Virus record (IMG/VR): IMGVR_UViG_3300037258_000282
Coordinates: 32,001-96,000 of that record
Origin: a virus
Reading direction: 5' to 3' (one strand)
DNA: 64,000 bases
The stretch's first letter is position 1; every line of letters starts with the position of its first letter. The notes under the pieces are model-generated. The model made no database searches and was not told the DNA's origin. It saw only the letters and a list, made by a program, of their open reading frames with translations. Both the position numbers and the translations under genes were made by a program. Shown here one piece after another: positions 15,726-58,138 of this stretch.

Positions 15726-17117
15726 TCACTTAAACTCGCTGAATTTGTCTTTAAGCTTACCTTTATGTCGCTCGGCGTCGTGAGTTCCAAATGTAGTCTT
15801 ATCCATGACCGGCGAATCGTCTTCCTGACCAGATTGATCTATATTGTACATTCGCATCTTCGCTCGATCAGTGCCGATGAAGAACTTCTTCTTTCTATTC
15901 GGATCGGAGTACCTATTCTTCAACTGCTTTGCCATCAACTGATCTATCTCAGTCAACTCGTCAGTCGCGATCAAGGCCATCATGAAGTCAGCGGTCGCGG
16001 GAAGACCAAATGAGTCCGAAGTATTCTCAAGACCAAAGTCTGAGTCCGTATATCCAGTCCTGTTTACCTGAGTGGCCGTCACGATCGGGACGCCGAACTC
16101 CACGGCTAGACCTCTGATCTCTTCGGCTATGGACTTCACGTACGTATACGTGTTGATCGACCCACTGAGCTTCAGTCTAGACGAAGCGCAGATATTAAGA
16201 TAGTCGATATAGATGATCGACGGAGAGAAGTTCTTCTTAGTCTTAAGCTCATTTAAGAGATATCGAAAGTGAGAGCTTCCGGCCGCGGCGGTGGGATACT
16301 CCTTGATTATGAGCTTTCCCTTGACTTTCTCTCGGAGTCTAGCGATCTTTCGATCGTAGACGTCCTTAGAAGTCTTCCTCAGTTCAGAGAGTGGAATATC
16401 CAAGAGATTAGCGTCGATCCTCTCGGCGATCCTCTCCTCAGCCATCTCCATAGTGATGTAGAGTACGTCGAACCCGCGAGATAAGTTATAGGCGGCCTGG
16501 TGGCACATCAGCATGGACTTTCCAACGCCGACTCCAGCCATGTATACGTTCAGAGTCTTGACCGAGAACCCACCCTCAGTGATCTCGTTCATTATATCAA
16601 TGTCAAACGGGACCTTCTTCTCTCTGGCGTGGTAGAACTCGTATCTCTTCTCTGCGTCGTCTATGAAGTCATGACCGATGGAAGTATCAAACGACACGGC
16701 GAGAGCGTCAGATAATATCTTAGGTATGGCGCCCTTATCAGACTTCGCGTCCTTACCGTCGATTATCTGGATCGACTGCATGATCGCGTTGTAGACCGCG
16801 CGCTCTTGGCAAAATTTTTCAGTGGAGTCTACGAGCCACTCTAAGTCTGGTCTCCTTTCTGGCTCCTTGGAGATCTCCTCAACTATAGAGACCGCCTCCT
16901 TGAATATCTGCTCCGTAAGTGAGACATTCGTTAGGTCTATCGCGACAGCTTCGATAGATGGTATCTTATTGTACTTTATGAAGTATGATGTTATTACCTC
17001 ATATACTACTCTCTCTGCCTTATTGGAGAAGTACTCTGAATTTAGAAATGGGATTATCCTGCGTGAGTACTCTTGGTTAGAGACCAACCCTGAAAGTATT
17101 ACCTTCTCTACTGCCAA
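15726..17117 (-). CDS. 41: replicative DNA helicase gp41
   Basis: AGVGVGKS Walker A, YITMEMAEERIAERID, IYIDYLNI, TATQVNR, SFGLPATAD, KQLKNRY. Confidence 0.95.
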   Translation of the reverse strand: MAVEKVILSGLVSNQEYSRRIIPFLNSEYFSNKAERVVYEVITSYFIKYNKIPSIEAVAIDLTNVSLTEQIFKEAVSIVEEISKEPERRPDLEWLVDSTEKFCQERAVYNAIMQSIQIIDGKDAKSDKGAIPKILSDALAVSFDTSIGHDFIDDAEKRYEFYHAREKKVPFDIDIMNEITEGGFSVKTLNVYMAGVGVGKSMLMCHQAAYNLSRGFDVLYITMEMAEERIAERIDANLLDIPLSELRKTSKDVYDRKIARLREKVKGKLIIKEYPTAAAGSSHFRYLLNELKTKKNFSPSIIYIDYLNICASSRLKLSGSINTYTYVKSIAEEIRGLAVEFGVPIVTATQVNRTGYTDSDFGLENTSDSFGLPATADFMMALIATDELTEIDQLMAKQLKNRYSDPNRKKKFFIGTDRAKMRMYNIDQSGQEDDSPVMDKTTFGTHDAERHKGKLKDKFSEFK

Positions 17118-17316
17118 TATCAGATCCTAGCGTAAAGTCTTCGGCAACCCCCTCTATCATACTGAGGCGCGCTCCAGAATAAGTTCTTACATTGCTGTCA
17201 AATGCGTCCGATAAGATAAGCACTATCTTCGCGGCGCCCTCTTCTCCAAGGATGCTGGCTACTCTCCTACCATCGTCGGAAATAAACTCAGATATAATGT
17301 ATTTATCGTATGACAT
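17077..17316 (-). CDS. hypothetical protein
   Basis: ORF track. Confidence 0.45.
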   Translation of the reverse strand: MSYDKYIISEFISDDGRRVASILGEEGAAKIVLILSDAFDSNVRTYSGARLSMIEGVAEDFTLGSDIGSREGNTFRVGL

Positions 17317-17466
17317 CGCTCATATCTACTCCGACCATCTCTGTCATGGCAGGCCAAAAAGGGATTGGATCTACTGGAGTTCCTGTATTAAGATAGATGT
17401 TAAGAAACCTATTAGGAAAATCTTGCTGCCAGATATCCCCAATGTATGACGTTATGCACATCTCTC

Positions 17467-17994
17467 TTATTCATCCTCAGTAGTGTCTGATATCATCTTG
17501 ATGTTACCGATAGCATATTTATTATCGAGATACACCTTAAAGTCGGTTCGATCAAAGATGTATTTCCAAAGCGAGGAAGATTTCTCGGCCATCTTGACCT
17601 TCACGTTCATATCTTCGATGACCTCGCCAGTCTCCCTGTCTACCGGCGCGACCCACCCGTTCTTAGTGGAGATCAAGTACTTACCCTCGAGAGCCTGCTC
17701 GACTAGTCCCGACCACCTATTCATTCCATCTTCAAATGTTATCTTGATGGGTATCTGGGACTTCTCCTTGAGAAAGCGAGACTTCTCAATGTTGATAATA
17801 AAGTCAAAGCCAAGCAGCTCCTTATCGGTGTTCTTATCCTGCCTCCTAGACACTATCCATATCGTATCGGCTCCAAAGTACACCCCCGTGTTATGACATA
17901 CGACACCATTCTCAAGTACGTACTGCTGGTTGCGTTCAACAGATATATCATACACTGACTGGTGCCCGACAGGTCTTATACTTTTTATTTTCAA
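17467..17994 (-). CDS. uvsX: UvsX C-terminal fragment fused to a split-intein C half (35 aa)
   Basis: MKIKSI...VYDISV...ENGVVCHN|TGVYFGADTIW...IEKSRFLKEK; AGAGGA SD and TTG start. Confidence 0.9.
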   Translation of the reverse strand: MKIKSIRPVGHQSVYDISVERNQQYVLENGVVCHNTGVYFGADTIWIVSRRQDKNTDKELLGFDFIINIEKSRFLKEKSQIPIKITFEDGMNRWSGLVEQALEGKYLISTKNGWVAPVDRETGEVIEDMNVKVKMAEKSSSLWKYIFDRTDFKVYLDNKYAIGNIKMISDTTEDE

Positions 17995-18311
17995 TTATCT
18001 TCCTCTTACAGTTATCGTCATGCCATCTCTTAACATATCATCAGTTTATCACGATCACTTATATCAGATACCAACTTCCACGATCCGTCATCCATCATAA
18101 ATTGATGGTCTTCAGAAACTGTTACCTTATATCCATCTTCAAACTCAACTTCGAAGCACCGTGGAGTTCCATCGCATAGAGTTTCTGGATTCCACACATG
18201 AGTAACTTGCATATCACCATCTAGCGTAACTACGCTGCTGCCCACACTCATACATTCCATAGGAAGTAGCGTACCATCGGCCATTTTCACTCTCGTTCCA
18301 GCGGCAACGCA
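17890..18311 (-). mobile_element. naturally split intein in uvsX (IntN 18033..18311, IntC 17890..17994)
   Basis: Block A CVAAGTRV, block B VSEDHQF, block F VYDISV, block G CHN/T. Confidence 0.9.
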
Positions 18312-18956
18312 ACCACCAGATACCACCGGCTTTGAGTACATCTCCTGCGTCTGATACGTGTGGTTGATGACGACCATCGGTATGTTCTTCATCGGAAGGT
18401 GCGGAGTTACTATCCTGAACAGACTCTTGAGCTGCTTAGCTCGCGTCATATCGGCCGAGGACTTCTGATCCATCGCGTCCTCGACTTCCTTCTTCGACGC
18501 GATATTTCCAATCGAGTCGACCATGATGAAAACGCGATCGCCCTTTTTTAGCTTGGCGAGTTGAGCCGCGATATCAAACTTCAGCTCCTCGATATTGGTC
18601 ACGGGAGTGAGGACGACAGACTTCAGCGATATACCAAACATATCAAAGTATGACTTCGGCGTGCCGAACTCATTGATATAGAACAATATCACTCCATCTG
18701 GATACTTCTTTAAGTACTGAGACGCCAGGAACAAAGCGAAGCCAGACTTGAAGTTCTTTGACACTCCGGCGATTACCGTAAGTCCGGCCGTAAGTCCACC
18801 GTCGACCGAACCCGAGAGGGCCAAATTTATCATCGGCACCGACGTGGGAATGACGTCCCGATCGTTGAATATATCTGAATTTTCCAAAATATCAGTCGTG
18901 CTAATAGTGGAAGTTTCCAGTATCTTTTGCTGGAGGGTCAACTTTTCTGCTGCCAA
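18030..18956 (-). CDS. uvsX: UvsX N-terminal fragment fused to a split-intein N half (93 aa)
   Basis: NLALSG, AGVSKNFKS Walker A, VDSIGNIASKKE, DMTRAK, INHTY, VVSGG|CVAAGT. Confidence 0.92.
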   Translation of the reverse strand: MAAEKLTLQQKILETSTISTTDILENSDIFNDRDVIPTSVPMINLALSGSVDGGLTAGLTVIAGVSKNFKSGFALFLASQYLKKYPDGVILFYINEFGTPKSYFDMFGISLKSVVLTPVTNIEELKFDIAAQLAKLKKGDRVFIMVDSIGNIASKKEVEDAMDQKSSADMTRAKQLKSLFRIVTPHLPMKNIPMVVINHTYQTQEMYSKPVVSGGCVAAGTRVKMADGTLLPMECMSVGSSVVTLDGDMQVTHVWNPETLCDGTPRCFEVEFEDGYKVTVSEDHQFMMDDGSWKLVSDISDRDKLMIC

Positions 18957-18957
18957 G

Positions 18958-19767
18958 TTACGACCTGTCCTTATCTGATAGGATGTTTGGATTGATTACT
19001 ACTATATCACTTCTGCCTGGAAGTGTCAACTTCTTTTGGAGTCCTGAGTTTGCCGCGAGGAGAAGTACGATAGCAAGCGGGTCGAATACTGACACTATGA
19101 CTACTATCAGGTATCTCACGGTCTTATCTAGAGCCGCCTGAGAGTTTTCAGAAAATAGAAGTTGAGCAACGTATAGAAGTGGGCCGGCGTCAGCTGACGC
19201 TTGGCTTACCTTAGACCTCGCGGCGATCAGCTCCTCGCTGTACTGCTGAGACGCGGTGAGGTGCTTATTTCTAGAATCCACTAGAGCTTGCCGAGTCTTG
19301 CGCTGACTCAGCTGCTCTCTAAGTGATAGAGACGCTCGATCGTTCTTGACGAGACTCTCTATAGCCTTATCTATCGCATCTATCTGAGTCTGTTCATCGT
19401 CTATGTAAGTCTTCTCACCTGAGACCTTAGCCTCAAGCAGTTGAATCTGCTCGACGTTACCTATGTTGGCCACTATGACGTGCTCGATGTGGGCCTTGGC
19501 TAGAAACCCATATACTCCCACGTCAGTTATGACTGACAGAACGCATATCGCCGCGATGAGATATGAGCGTATCGCGACAGAGGCCACCGGCCAGTTATGT
19601 TGAACCCACGACGCCGCGACCAGCTTTCCGGCCCCGAGGACGACGCCCATTATAGTCACGGGCCAGTAGGCGCCGACGAAGAGAGTGGTAAGTCCCTGAA
19701 TCGAGAAATACTCAGCTACGCCAGATAGACAGATCGCGACTATGAGGGCTATCGCGCTTACTATCAT
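18958..19767 (-). CDS. conserved multi-pass membrane protein with coiled coil
   Basis: N-terminal hydrophobic helices, GVYGFLAKAH, VFDPLAIVLLLAAN. Confidence 0.65.
   Translation of the reverse strand: MIVSAIALIVAICLSGVAEYFSIQGLTTLFVGAYWPVTIMGVVLGAGKLVAASWVQHNWPVASVAIRSYLIAAICVLSVITDVGVYGFLAKAHIEHVIVANIGNVEQIQLLEAKVSGEKTYIDDEQTQIDAIDKAIESLVKNDRASLSLREQLSQRKTRQALVDSRNKHLTASQQYSEELIAARSKVSQASADAGPLLYVAQLLFSENSQAALDKTVRYLIVVIVSVFDPLAIVLLLAANSGLQKKLTLPGRSDIVVINPNILSDKDRS
19001..19029 (-). promoter_or_regulatory. sigma70-like promoter for uvsX
   Basis: TTGACA-17-TATAGT. Confidence 0.65.
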
Positions 19768-20270
19768 TCGGCGATTAACTTTTCCATCTTCTCAACGAAC
19801 GCCTGAATGGCTGAGACTCTCTGAGAGCCGGGCCAATACACGTAGTCTTTCTCTGAATCCGCACCCAGAGCGCTGAGGAGGGGCATGATCGCCTCATGAA
19901 GATTTCCAAGCTTTTGCTTAGTCACGTCGGCGACCGTAGTGACCGTTTCAAGATGAGCCTGAAGCTCTCTTTCCTTCTGCTTAACCTCACCCTCAGTCAT
20001 GAGTGAGAAGCCAAACGCGTTGTTTGAATCGTAAGTCTGTTCCACTTTTTTTCCTATCTCCATTTTCTCTTCTTTATGATCTTCGCAGTTGCACACTTTA
20101 TACAGCCCGCACGAGCATCCTCCGCCTCGATCATACATAGCCACGTCAAGCTCCGGCGATTGGTTTAAAAGATTCAGGAAGAATGACATTTGGCGGACTT
20201 CCCCTGAAGAAATGGGCAATATCTGTCGGGGTATATCCCGCGAGGCCGCACCCGATCGCTGTAACCTCAA
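19764..20270 (-). CDS. hypothetical protein; true start probably internal
   Basis: FGFSL and KDYVYWP motifs; the 5' part overlaps the next gene. Confidence 0.5.
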   Translation of the reverse strand: MRLQRSGAASRDIPRQILPISSGEVRQMSFFLNLLNQSPELDVAMYDRGGGCSCGLYKVCNCEDHKEEKMEIGKKVEQTYDSNNAFGFSLMTEGEVKQKERELQAHLETVTTVADVTKQKLGNLHEAIMPLLSALGADSEKDYVYWPGSQRVSAIQAFVEKMEKLIAE

Positions 20271-31906: not shown

Positions 31907-33377
31907 TAAAAAATGTACTCAAATCTGCCCTATCCATCACTTTGGAAAGATCCATTACTGTAGTTCTCTTCTTTCCCTCAAAGACCGAAAAGATCTTATC
32001 ACTAAACTGCTTAAAGCCTACGGCCGGAACCTGACCATTTGATATTAAGCTCTCCCATTTAGCGGTCACTAAGCCACCGGCCGTCTGACCATAAACGTGG
32101 TCTAGAAAGTCCCTGACGCCATTAAACTTACCTGGGTCCTTACCGATCCTGACGATATCATCGAGCATCGTCGGAAGATTGATGTTGGAGTTGAACTCAC
32201 TCTTTATGAATGCTAATCCCGACTCCCTATATTTATCCTGCTCTGATGTATTATCGGCGATATCTACCAACTTTTCTGCAGTAGCGCGAAGATCACTCTT
32301 ATCAGACCAAATAGCAAGGTGGTCTATAGAGTCGTATGTCACTCCAGAAGATGACATATTATGCGCTCCATAGTGGGAGTCAAATACTGGAATCGACCCA
32401 CACGCTATCATTTCAATTTGAGTATTCTCCATGCGATCACCATAGTTCTCTGGCTGCTTTGGAAGCCTAAAGAAAGACGCGCAAAATAGAGATTCCGCTA
32501 TATATCTCATTCCATTGGAATGAGTATACGGGCCAAATACCGGAACTTTGGGTGGATTAAAGTCGTAGTCTCCATCAAACTTTAAGGAATAGACCGTATT
32601 ATGGTGTCCCCAGTCTTCTGGAGGAGGGCCGCCTTTATAGGACGCTATGGGGCCGCCGACGATGTCAGCCTTGGCTCCAATAGACTTCTCTATGCCATGA
32701 ATCAAGCACTGGAACTTAGGGTCTATCTCGAATAAGTGATCTGCTAGGTCTAGCACTCTTCTAGGATCTTTCATCGTCGACCATCGCCCGACGTACGTCA
32801 GCCTCTTAGCCTTATCAGCGAGCTTAACTGAGTCAAAATACTTTTCCTTGAGACCATCTACGTCGGTCCATATCTTAAACCTGCGGACGCGATCTCCCAC
32901 TACCTTTGACGGAAGTATCTTTGTGATATTTTGAGCGAACCAGACTTTCTCAGAGAAGACATATATCAAGTCTGACTCATTGAGGATGGGAAGCCACAGT
33001 GGAAAACAGTCGATGTTTGGCTGAATTATCTCGTTCATCACCGAGACGACTATAGCTTGGGACGCCGATAGTGATCGAACAAGATCGTAGTAGAACGAGA
33101 TTGAGGTAGACGCAAGATGCTTAAATGATGGTATCGACTGTAGGATGACGACATCATACTCTGTCAGTCTCTTCGCTACGGTCTTCATTTCTGATGGCTT
33201 GAATCTCACTACCGTACCGGAAAATGGATGTCCTGATGCCCTGGCGAACGAGCGCTCGACCAATTCAAACACGTCGAACTGCATTCCGACTCTGATAGCC
33301 CAATTTTGAAACTCAACGCCGGACCGCTGAACTCCACATCCATCAAACCCCTTTCCAAATACCATAGCAATCTTCAT
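31899..33377 (-). CDS. DNA alpha-glucosyltransferase homolog (T4 agt-like)
   Basis: MKIAMVFGKGFDGCGV, SFARASGH, YVGRWSTMKD, ENTQIEMIACGSIPVF match recalled T4 AGT motifs. Confidence 0.75.
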   Translation of the reverse strand: MKIAMVFGKGFDGCGVQRSGVEFQNWAIRVGMQFDVFELVERSFARASGHPFSGTVVRFKPSEMKTVAKRLTEYDVVILQSIPSFKHLASTSISFYYDLVRSLSASQAIVVSVMNEIIQPNIDCFPLWLPILNESDLIYVFSEKVWFAQNITKILPSKVVGDRVRRFKIWTDVDGLKEKYFDSVKLADKAKRLTYVGRWSTMKDPRRVLDLADHLFEIDPKFQCLIHGIEKSIGAKADIVGGPIASYKGGPPPEDWGHHNTVYSLKFDGDYDFNPPKVPVFGPYTHSNGMRYIAESLFCASFFRLPKQPENYGDRMENTQIEMIACGSIPVFDSHYGAHNMSSSGVTYDSIDHLAIWSDKSDLRATAEKLVDIADNTSEQDKYRESGLAFIKSEFNSNINLPTMLDDIVRIGKDPGKFNGVRDFLDHVYGQTAGGLVTAKWESLISNGQVPAVGFKQFSDKIFSVFEGKKRTTVMDLSKVMDRADLSTFFND

Positions 33378-55078: not shown

Positions 55079-58000
55079 TTACTGTCCCTTGATATCTTGC
55101 CCAGCGGTACCTTTCGTCGCGCCGATAGACTTGGCTATCTCTGGATTCTTAGCTAGAATTTGCACCGCCGCCTTATACTTAGACTGATCCTGCATCGAGC
55201 GATTTTCCTTAGATTTCTTCTTCATCATCTCTATCGTCTGCTTGGCCTTTCTAACCTCTTCATACTTCTTGGCCTTATCGTCATCCACCATAGCATCGGA
55301 ATCTGAACCAACGTCCTGGGGCACATCATCTGGATTCTCATCTGGATTCTCATCTGGGTTCATCATATCTTGTGGCTGCCACCTCGGATCACCGGAGTCG
55401 AGCTCGGCCTGTATCTCGGCGTCCATCTTTTCGATGTCCTCATCTGACTGCTGGAGGACGTTCTTACGAACCCACTCATTAGAATAGTACTTACCTACCA
55501 TGTCCTGAAGATTTCTAGCGAGCTCAACTCTAGAAGTCAGTACCTCACCATCTTTTAGTTCAGTGAAGTAGTTATCCTTTGAGTAGTTATACTTTACTCT
55601 CTGCTCTATATCCTGCCAGTCCTCAAGAGACATAACCCCCTTGAGGACTAACTGCTTCTCGAGAAGCTTATTGAATATGATCGAGAAGCGTGAGCGAAGT
55701 CTTATGATGAACCGAGCAAACTTTACCTCGTCGCGCGTTACTTCGGTCGCCCTTCCCACGGAGAAAAGTGCGTCCGAGTTCAGTCGGGAGACAGGTACGT
55801 TGAGAGTCTGTAGAAACTTCTTCTGAAAGTATAAGACGTCGTCCATCTGCCCGAGGTTTTGACCTCCCGGCAGGGTAGTAACCTCAGTTCCACGCCCGCC
55901 CTCTCTTCTCGGAAGCCAGTAATCTTCAAGAGTTGTATTCTTTGAATAAATCCCACAGTCAAGCTGAAAGGTATGATGGCTATCATATGCCTCTTTTTCA
56001 AAGTCAATAGTCAGGCACCCGACGTCCATCTTCTCGTTGAGGAATTCTACAGATACGACCCTGTGGTTGTGCAGTTGCTCGGCGTGATACCCTCTAGAGC
56101 CAAAGTCTCCCTTGATGTTATTTCTATCTAATCCACTGGCGCGGCAGAAAGCGCTGAGATTCTCAATTATCTCAATCTGTCCGTCAGGAGCAGTGATCTT
56201 CCATGACTTACACGCAACAGAAGTTCTATTTTTAGCCGCTACAGATAGTGACTCTCTCCACTGTGTATTATTTGACATATCAACGTATCGCTTTAGCGTA
56301 CTGCGTTGCTTTTTATTATGTACTATTTTCGAAGCAAACTGAGCTGAGTAGCTCTTCCAGTTCTTATGTCCGAGGCGCCCGCACACTTTAAGCAGGTCGC
56401 GATACAGGAACTTCCAGGGCACGATAGCCCTCTTGGGCATGATGGTGTCGGCATTAGCGCTCATCCACGCCGCATGATCGATCTTCTCATTGATTAGTTT
56501 TAGAGCTTCCGCTCCTCTCATCTGGTCTCTGGCGCACTTCTCTACTACACCGTATATCTCGTCGGTGTATAATAGAGTTCGAGCCTCGGCATTCTTTATC
56601 TTCAACTCATCGCTGTTACAGAACACCGAGTGGTACTTCCAGTGATCCCTGTTGTTCATCATGACAAGGTTCTCTGGATTATTGTTGTATCTATTTAAGT
56701 CGAAGTGGTGAACTGTCCTCTTGTTTAGGTGGTTCAAGTCAGCATCATAAGAGAATTCCTCGCGAAGCCCGTTCTCGTCTTTCCACTTAGATACCGCGCG
56801 ATGAGTAAATACCCACTTCTTACTGTCATTTTGATATATCTGCTCGTACTCTCTTCCACCATCTTCTATGGGAGACATCCTCCTATAGCCTGGAATGATC
56901 GACTCACCAATCGCGAGGTGCTGAGCCTCGACGAACCCCTTGTTCCAAACTGGAAACTTGTGATCTGGTGTGCAGACAACGCTCTTGCCATTGTCAAGAG
57001 TGACGCGAACTACGTCGGAGTCTCTCTTAGTGATGCCAGCCCACTCTACTGGTCCTGGCGCGAATTTACCAGTCATGGGATCGCATGAGTATACCCAGTT
57101 CTTCTTACCAGCCTCGTACTCGGCGATTATCTCTTCTAGCGGAAGAGTGCGACCATCCAGCAGTGGTATTCTCGTATCTAACGCGAGACACATGAACTTG
57201 CGATCGTCACGAACCTCACCAGACGCGGCGTCATATATGAGACGATTCTTGTGCTTCACCATGATCTCGCGGACGTACTGCTCCGCCTTGATCTTTGGAA
57301 GATTACCGACGTCGATGTACCATATTCTTCTCTCGGGGGCTCTCGCGATCCTGTATATGACCATGGAGTCTTCGAGCGTCCTAAGCTGGTTCAGAGACTT
57401 AATGCCCTTATGCAGATAGGACAGGACCATGGTCCCACCGTTATCTGTCAGCCCGGATACTACGTGAAGTATGGAATCTACCGCGATCTTTAGGCCGTTA
57501 GTCGCAGGGCCAGATGGCTTATTTCCGTAGTTGAACCCCTTATCGTTGAACACGAAGTACTCGTTAGCAACGCGAGTGATCGTGGCGTCACCGCCTCCGA
57601 TACCTCCAGATGAGCCTCCCTGAACTCGCTTTCGAGCGACCTCGCGAATCTTACGGATCTTTCTCGGATCTATGTATCGAAGTTCCTTGATGCCACCAGA
57701 CGTATCGTTCTCATCTATGATGACGTGATAGTATAGGCGCCCATCGATATACCAGCGCCTGAGAATGTCGTACGCGTATTTGTTAAAATCGAGAAGGTCT
57801 AGGCAGTTGTGAAACTCCTCGATTATGACCTTCTTAATATTATCAGAGATATTGACTTTATCTAGATTTATATCTACGATGGTCTCTTCGTCGATAGACA
57901 TAGCTTCATTGACTATCTCATCGATAGCCGAATCGCACTCCGGCTGGAGCGACATCTCTCGATATTTAGTGACGAGTTCGGCCTCAGTTCGAACAGTTCC

Positions 58001-58138
58001 ATCTAGATCGATGTACGTTCCGAACGAGCCACCGGCCGCGACGATAACAGCTCCGTCCTCATTATCCCTCGGGGCGAATGAGACTAGCTGCTTGTCTAGC
58101 GGTACTTTTCTCTTAAACTCAAATCCGAATAGCATCAT
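55079..58138 (-). CDS. 20: portal protein gp20 with intein
   Basis: RRWYIDGR, LRYIDPRKI, IYRIARAPERR, EDYWLPRREGGRGTE. Confidence 0.95.
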   Translation of the reverse strand: MMLFGFEFKRKVPLDKQLVSFAPRDNEDGAVIVAAGGSFGTYIDLDGTVRTEAELVTKYREMSLQPECDSAIDEIVNEAMSIDEETIVDINLDKVNISDNIKKVIIEEFHNCLDLLDFNKYAYDILRRWYIDGRLYYHVIIDENDTSGGIKELRYIDPRKIRKIREVARKRVQGGSSGGIGGGDATITRVANEYFVFNDKGFNYGNKPSGPATNGLKIAVDSILHVVSGLTDNGGTMVLSYLHKGIKSLNQLRTLEDSMVIYRIARAPERRIWYIDVGNLPKIKAEQYVREIMVKHKNRLIYDAASGEVRDDRKFMCLALDTRIPLLDGRTLPLEEIIAEYEAGKKNWVYSCDPMTGKFAPGPVEWAGITKRDSDVVRVTLDNGKSVVCTPDHKFPVWNKGFVEAQHLAIGESIIPGYRRMSPIEDGGREYEQIYQNDSKKWVFTHRAVSKWKDENGLREEFSYDADLNHLNKRTVHHFDLNRYNNNPENLVMMNNRDHWKYHSVFCNSDELKIKNAEARTLLYTDEIYGVVEKCARDQMRGAEALKLINEKIDHAAWMSANADTIMPKRAIVPWKFLYRDLLKVCGRLGHKNWKSYSAQFASKIVHNKKQRSTLKRYVDMSNNTQWRESLSVAAKNRTSVACKSWKITAPDGQIEIIENLSAFCRASGLDRNNIKGDFGSRGYHAEQLHNHRVVSVEFLNEKMDVGCLTIDFEKEAYDSHHTFQLDCGIYSKNTTLEDYWLPRREGGRGTEVTTLPGGQNLGQMDDVLYFQKKFLQTLNVPVSRLNSDALFSVGRATEVTRDEVKFARFIIRLRSRFSIIFNKLLEKQLVLKGVMSLEDWQDIEQRVKYNYSKDNYFTELKDGEVLTSRVELARNLQDMVGKYYSNEWVRKNVLQQSDEDIEKMDAEIQAELDSGDPRWQPQDMMNPDENPDENPDDVPQDVGSDSDAMVDDDKAKKYEEVRKAKQTIEMMKKKSKENRSMQDQSKYKAAVQILAKNPEIAKSIGATKGTAGQDIKGQ
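55937..57190 (-). mobile_element. 418-aa cis intein with HNH endonuclease in the portal
   Basis: KFM|CLALDTRIP; CTPDHKF; VHHFDLNRYNNNPENL; GIYSKN|TTLEDYW. Confidence 0.9.

Follow-up and report, generated by a model that had tools for sequence, protein, structure and literature searches.

A probable split intein in the UvsX recombinase of an uncultured T4-like phage, with an apparent endonuclease-gene fossil between its halves

The recombinase gene uvsX of an uncultured T4-like soil phage is broken into two half-genes. It is located in a 64,000-nucleotide (nt) stretch, here called the window, which comprises positions 32,001 to 96,000 of IMG/VR record IMGVR_UViG_3300037258_000282; the full record is a linear phage sequence of 152,589 bp and is 91% complete. 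In these 152.6 kb, only the fractured uvsX matches the RecA family, and UvsX is the only recombinase of the phage. Two open reading frames (ORFs) lie between positions 17467 and 18956 on the minus strand, 18956..18030 (308 amino acids, aa) and 17994..17467 (175 aa). The first is UvsX-like for 215 residues, through ...MYSKPVVSGG, and then continues into a 93-aa segment (CVAAGT...LMIC) before a TAA stop codon. The second is separated from it by 35 nt, lies in a different frame (35 mod 3 = 2), and begins with a TTG codon that abuts an in-frame TAA, with the Shine-Dalgarno (SD) sequence AAGAGGAAG (18007–17999) located 4 nt upstream. Its product starts with a 35-aa segment (MKIKSIRPVG...VVCHN), which is followed by TGVYFGADTIW and a further 129 residues. 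The 93-aa segment is acidic (net charge −10, isoelectric point 4.3), and residues 1–12 of the 35-aa segment carry a net charge of +3. A preliminary description of this DNA had given the same anatomy, from the acidic 93-aa tail after VVSGG to the 35-bp gap, the change of frame, the separate SD sequence, and the 35-aa segment ending in CHN, and all of it is correct.

The UvsX portions of the two ORFs, 215 aa at the N-terminus (N-extein) and 140 aa at the C-terminus (C-extein), sum to a UvsX of 355 aa. The N-terminal ORF aligns with residues 4–186 of T4 UvsX (PDB 3io5; E = 2e-62), up to the glycine that precedes the first residue of the insertion (Cys1), while the alignment of the C-terminal ORF starts at residue 187, corresponding to the Thr at position +1 (E = 1.9e-22). 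Residues 186 and 187 are consecutive in the T4 chain and flank the break, with no gap across the junction; a collinear UvsX of 355 aa is thus restored once the 93 and 35 residues are removed. The Pfam scores for UvsX (RecA, 22 bits; T4_UVSX_C, 21.2 bits) are both slightly under the 27-bit cut-offs. The coordinates of the locus are collected in the Table, in which IntN and IntC denote the N- and C-terminal intein fragments.

Table. Features of the fractured uvsX locus, in coordinates of the window.
Feature	Position	Strand	Comment
uvsX N-extein, 215 aa	18312..18956	-	TTG start at 18956, 1 base past the TAA of the upstream ORF; phrog_97 (UvsX-like recombinase), 2.5e-59
IntN, 93 aa (predicted)	18033..18311	-	Cys1 at 18311-18309; block B Ser66-x-x-His69, His at 18107-18105
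TAA stop of N-half gene	18030..18032	-	same in the Logan contig
35-nt spacer, apparent endonuclease 3' remnant	17995..18029	-	reads RWHDDNCKRKI; holds the SD AAGAGGAAG of the IntC gene
IntC, 35 aa (predicted)	17890..17994	-	TTG start, basic N-terminus; block F Asp16 at 17949-17947; block G His34-Asn35 at 17895-17890
uvsX C-extein, 140 aa + stop	17467..17889	-	Thr+1 at 17889-17887; phrog_18112 covers the whole ORF from residue 1, IntC included
Candidate sigma-70-like promoter	19001..19029	-	TTGACA-17-TATAGT + TG extension, 11/12; consensus match only; ~45 nt upstream of N-half start

The two inserted segments were aligned with those of 13 IMG/VR loci, for a total of 14 IntN and 14 IntC sequences. 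Cys1 and the block B residues S66 and H69 (S66-E-D-H69 in the window) are invariant in all 14 IntN sequences, as are D16 of block F and H34-N35 of block G in all 14 IntC sequences. The +1 residue is Thr in 13 of the 14 and Ser in the remaining one; Thr is also native at this position in T4 and in the intein-less locus L034. Identity to the window across the family is 46–57% for IntN and 56–73% for IntC. The 14-sequence IntN profile matches the gp41-1 split intein (6qaz, E = 2.3e-7) as well as the PI-SceI and DnaE inteins. The corresponding IntC profile matches residues 3–36 of Npu DnaE IntC (4lx3_B, E = 1.9e-6) and has the same split point, with the start of IntC aligning to residues 2–3 of Npu IntC, which is the canonical endonuclease-insertion loop. 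The intein codons of the family are under strong purifying selection, with ratios of nonsynonymous to synonymous substitution rates (dN/dS) of 0.06–0.16, including for pairs with the endonuclease-less loci L017 and L018. Between the window and its nearest relatives, the proportion of nonsynonymous differences in these codons (pN) is 0.27–0.29, and that of synonymous differences (pS) is 0.74–0.82, at which synonymous sites are saturated.

Residue conservation, the profile matches, purifying selection, and the status of uvsX as the sole RecA-family gene together argue for a functional trans-splicing intein as by far the best reading of the locus, with splicing itself predicted from these features. 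The window very probably contains a naturally split class-1 mini-intein (93 + 35 aa) in UvsX that trans-splices to form the 355-aa protein and that has had its endonuclease deleted. A uvsX split intein, with rejoining at SGG-TG to yield a UvsX of ~355 aa, was the central proposal of the preliminary description, and the collinearity with T4, the splicing blocks, the split point, and the profiles lend it support. In the predicted mechanism, IntN, which is acidic, would pair with the basic N-terminus of IntC, and the two fragments would form a HINT domain. An N-S acyl shift at Cys1 would be followed by trans-esterification onto the hydroxyl of Thr+1, His34-assisted cyclization of Asn35, and an O-N shift. 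This would yield a UvsX of 355 aa joined at VVSGG-TGVYF. The insertion lies between Gly215 and Thr216, within a conserved GG/TG motif that adjoins the L2 DNA-binding loop.

A segment around IntN residues 43–59 (18135–18185, minus strand), WNPETLxDGxPECFEVEFEDG, is almost invariant across all 14 sequences, and the alignment with gp41-1 has a 5-residue gap there. Either protein structure or an endonuclease target may underlie this conservation; at third-codon positions, the invariant PECFEVEFEDG stretch shows just a slight rise in conservation over the rest.

The same split intein occurs in many other phages. A tblastn search with IntN identified 25 GenBank phage records with the same split intein at the same site, and 19 further uvsX loci were found in IMG/VR, such that the window is not a singleton; the preliminary description had called for just such a search of phage genomes. 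The GenBank records include Escherichia phages HY03, RPN226 (vB_EcoM-RPN226), ELT1, BYEP01, and SYGD1; Salmonella phages CF-SP2, SEA1, and pSe_SNUABM_01; Shigella phage SP21535; Yersinia phage TG1 (vB_YenM_TG1); Proteus phages Pm5461 and PM2; Klebsiella and Enterobacter phages; Pseudomonas phage PspYZU05; Shewanella phage Thanatos-1; and Vibrio phages EniLVp02 and vB_VmeM-32. All of the GenBank and IMG/VR loci share the split point and the GG/T(S)G insertion site. In CF-SP2, the N-extein is 211 aa in length and collinear with T4. Two segments resembling IntN (L026 and L027) were left out, as they have no match to a UvsX extein. The halves are labeled in GenBank merely as recombination, RecA-like, or hypothetical proteins, and PHROGs assigns the N half to phrog_8337 and the C half, from IntC residue 1, to a separate family, phrog_18112. 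No UvsX intein, whether split or contiguous, turned up in the literature, with InBase and subscription journals outside the search, which agrees with the statement in the preliminary description that no UvsX split intein is known to have been characterized.

Nearly all of the GenBank and IMG/VR loci have a free-standing endonuclease gene in a gap of 723–1066 nt between the intein halves. These endonucleases are of three types: HNH with NUMOD3, GIY-YIG-like with NUMOD3, and SegE-like GIY-YIG. At the HNH-type loci, the endonuclease ends in a zinc-finger-like tail, CxxC...NL(K/S)RWHN(D/E)(N/K)CKRK..., the last codons of which overlap the start of IntC and hold its SD sequence, AAAAGGAAA. The spacer of the window aligns without gaps to the 3'-terminal 34 nt of the endonuclease genes at loci L012, L016, and L018, with 26 of 34 nt identical (binomial P of about 1e-6 per comparison). 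The distance from the Trp codon (TGG) to the start of IntC is 31 nt in the window and in each of these three loci, and the spacer encodes RWHDDNCKRKI in the endonuclease frame. By this evidence, the spacer is identified as the 3' remnant of a deleted homing-endonuclease gene of the HNH/NUMOD3 type. The match to endonuclease 3' ends argues that an endonuclease gene was deleted and that the window represents the end stage of endonuclease loss. The 35-bp spacer given in the preliminary description is real; its origin as an endonuclease fossil went unrecognized there.

Longer remnants occur in the gaps of L018 (115 nt), L017 (138 nt), and L024/L025 (142 nt), in each of which ~35–45 codons of the tail survive. 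The remnant in the window is the shortest among the loci compared. All four short-gap forms (the window, L018, L017, and L024/L025) keep the last ~31–41 nt of the endonuclease gene, which fits selection for the ribosome-binding site of the gene encoding IntC and the UvsX C-extein; we infer that the last ~34 nt were probably kept for this purpose. On this reading, the canonical loop for endonuclease insertion once contained a free-standing homing-endonuclease gene, which split the intein and was later deleted almost exactly. When the phage record was searched for homologues of the L009 HNH endonuclease, none was returned elsewhere, which does not count as evidence of absence.

Two further observations were made on the endonucleases of the family. 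In L016 (2066–2767; 77 + 129 aa) and L023 (3345–4299; 133 + 201 aa), the endonuclease gene is split into two ORFs, and these appear as intermediates of decay. The CxxC...RWHxDxCK tail occurs on a GIY-YIG-like head (MxVVYK...YIGS) in L002 (2854–3708) and L020 (3344–4195), and on an HNH head in L007, L009–L012, L019, and L021. The sharing of a tail by different heads suggests the shuffling of modules between endonucleases that target the same gap.

Contiguous and empty alleles of the same site were also found. A 513-aa contiguous relative, P0008 (which corresponds to L029–L031), was used as a query against 1.84 billion representative proteins. At least seven representatives have contiguous mini-inteins of 127–152 aa at the same site (P0019, P0020, and P0111 are among the contiguous forms), and many N-half representatives have tails of 92–98 aa. 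The empty, contiguous, and fractured states coexist within the P0008 clade: L033 is intein-less (...SGG/QKLEL), L029–L031 have a contiguous mini-intein, and L032 is fractured, with a gene for a 415-aa GIY-YIG-like endonuclease in its gap. The intein-less L034 displays the predicted splicing product, ...VVSGGTGIMYSANTVF..., and T4 agrees with it. The +1 residue within the P0008 clade is Gln in the intein-less L033 (2501–3577), Thr in L029, and Ser in L032, which suggests that the intein and the +1 nucleophile came in together. In L032, the fractured uvsX is preceded by a 783-aa ORF (56–2407) that has an intein-like block A (...INCFHKDTEIMTPDGIRLVKDVKEGD...) ~28 residues from its start and may be another intein-bearing gene beside uvsX.

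Several features weigh against a functional split intein in the window. In block B, Ser takes the place of the usual Thr, although this conservative replacement is common to all 14 sequences. A Cys is found at position −3 of IntC (C33), where relatives have Thr or Ser, and IntN has its own window-specific cysteines (C20, C46, and C93). The scores for Pfam PF14890 (16.2 bits for the N half and 22.9 bits for the C half) are below the cut-off of 35.8, as might be expected of fragments that each cover only part of the model. The two TTG start codons could lower or unbalance expression. The block B Ser, the window-specific cysteines, and the TTG start of the C-half gene would be compatible with halves that splice no longer, and that serve instead as a noncovalent clasp for two UvsX fragments or belong to a decaying gene. 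This is unlikely, however, as C1, H69, D16, H34, N35, and T+1 are all intact, and the block B Ser is invariant in a family with dN/dS of 0.06–0.16. Both exteins are also full-length and collinear with T4 UvsX, and the record contains no second RecA-family gene.

The reality of the break itself was considered, as the window is a metagenome assembly and contiguous mini-inteins exist at this very site in UvsX (P0008, L029–L031, and at least seven more representative clusters). A contiguous mini-intein might appear split through a spurious stop codon or frameshift introduced by assembly or sequencing. A Logan contig of 41,950 nt (k-mer depth 42.8) is identical to the window over 17300–19100. This contig is a second assembly of the probable source, a soil metagenome run, and thus comes from the same sample and not an independent one; it excludes an error specific to one assembler but not an error at the level of reads, and the shared sample counts as a further reservation about the split. 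The comparative evidence is stronger. The break coincides exactly with the split point of more than 30 other loci, and the IntC ORF starts with the family-conserved MKIKS behind an SD sequence. The spacer is homologous to the 3' end of an endonuclease gene and not to an intein linker, and a single frame would require the removal of a stop codon plus a frameshift. Given these observations and the identical sequence obtained by a second assembler at a depth of ~43, an artifactual split is the least probable of the alternatives. Only marginally less improbable is an ancestral split free of endonuclease, in which the intein was split first and endonuclease genes invaded its relatives later. The presence of HNH/NUMOD3, GIY-YIG-like, and SegE-like types in the same gap does speak for repeated invasion. 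A gap that had never held an endonuclease gene would not, however, bear the tail of one, and this order of events is contradicted by a spacer that keeps 26 of 34 nt, the frame of the RWHxxxCKRK tail, and the same distance to the IntC start, as well as by the intermediate remnants of 115–142 nt in L017, L018, and L024.

The two half-genes are adjacent and on the same strand, and no terminator-like sites were found in 17000–19900. The halves are therefore most likely co-transcribed. The promoter candidate in the Table could possibly drive both of them; it sits inside the 3' end of an upstream ORF of 269 aa. Both half-genes apparently start with TTG immediately after a stop codon (TAAcTTG at 18954–18960 and TAATTG at 17992–17997, minus strand). 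The start of the N half overlaps the end of the upstream ORF, and there is no in-frame ATG near either start. The IntC gene begins with ATG in all 18 relatives examined, as opposed to TTG in the window. Each half would be translated from its own start following co-transcription, with the second initiating at TTG behind a strong SD sequence. Dassa et al. (2009; PMC2677866) described a hairpin upstream of endonuclease genes. The RNA of the window spacer has no counterpart of this hairpin and no structure beyond that of shuffled sequences (z = 0.37).

A switch acting on recombination-dependent replication had also been suggested in the preliminary description, and the analysis yielded no support for it. 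In such a scheme, the endonuclease-free intein would be more than a leftover parasite and would gate UvsX post-translationally, with splicing, and hence recombination-dependent replication, conditional on the stoichiometry of the fragments or on redox state. The stoichiometric variant draws on the weak TTG start of the C half, and the redox variant on Cys1, the window-specific Cys at IntC −3, and the extra cysteines of IntN. The inteins of Pyrococcus RadA and mycobacterial DnaB, which a UvsX gate would resemble, reportedly splice conditionally. We consider such a gate improbable.

The arrangement in the window has close parallels. Dassa, London, Stoddard, Schueler-Furman, and Pietrokovski (2009; PMC2677866) described fractured genes, in which a free-standing homing-endonuclease gene lies between intein halves; the window has no such gene between its intein halves, only the 35-nt remnant. 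The authors mention UvsX only as a neighbor of fractured gp41 (PMC2677866). Their gp41-7 has adjacent split intein halves with the endonuclease gene missing, and represents step III of the gene-breaking model (PMC2677866). As in gp41-7, a phage replication or recombination gene is broken in the window at a conserved site, with the halves adjacent on one strand and a canonical split at the endonuclease-insertion loop, and the endonuclease gene present in sister loci appears to have been lost. The window differs in that its host protein is UvsX and that its gap retains a recognizable 34-nt HNH/NUMOD3 coding fossil that doubles as a ribosome-binding site. The endonucleases in the relatives of the window are HNH/NUMOD3 and GIY-YIG-like; Dassa et al. 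(2009) have a Vsr-like family.

The cultured T4-like phages in GenBank have IntN sequences that are 49–58% identical to that of the window, along with the same GG/TG site, split point, and Cys1/Thr+1 pair. In contrast to the 35 nt of the window, their gaps are 761–1066 nt in length and contain an endonuclease gene of 650–860 nt, and their UvsX proteins are only ~50% identical to that of the window. The structurally characterized Npu and Ssp DnaE and gp41-1 inteins (PDB 4lx3, 4kl5, and 2keq; 6qaz) share with the window, as judged by profile match, the class-1 HINT fold. They also share an acidic IntN of ~90–100 aa, an IntC of ~35 aa with a basic start, Cys1, and a terminal Asn. The similarity is remote (E of 1e-6 to 1e-7) and detected only by profiles. 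Differences from these inteins are found in the +1 residue (Thr in the window as opposed to Cys or Ser) and in the Ser-x-x-His of block B; the conserved insert of IntN residues 43–59 has no counterpart in gp41-1, and the DnaE halves are encoded at distant loci, whereas those of the window are adjacent. The contiguous UvsX mini-inteins are closer, with the same site, homologous splicing blocks, and 63% IntN identity. Unlike the window, these have a single polypeptide that is spliced in cis, with a linker of 30–45 aa in place of a stop, spacer, and start.

By these comparisons, the window has a real, well-preserved, and probably active split intein in uvsX. The element is not unique and belongs to a known kind (split inteins and fractured genes), of which public phage genomes contain many examples. 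With it, UvsX joins the list of proteins that host natural split inteins. Taken together, the window and its relatives illustrate the states of the gene-breaking model within a single gene: empty, contiguous, split by an endonuclease gene, with a decaying endonuclease, and free of endonuclease. The particular value of the window is as a clean example of the end stage, with a 35-nt fossil probably kept as a ribosome-binding site. As a compact, endonuclease-free pair (93 + 35 aa) with Cys1/Thr+1 and a native GG/TG junction, it is a candidate for orthogonal protein ligation. Homologous loci in cultivable coliphages (HY03 and RPN226) and in Salmonella phages make the biology directly testable.

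The phage also has a second intein, in the gene for the gp20 portal protein (55079–58138, minus strand; 1019 aa). This intein is contiguous and large, and is located in a structural gene. The ORF matches Portal_T4 (532 bits) in two stretches, between which Intein_splicing matches at 45.9 bits, above its cut-off, over residues ~325–712.

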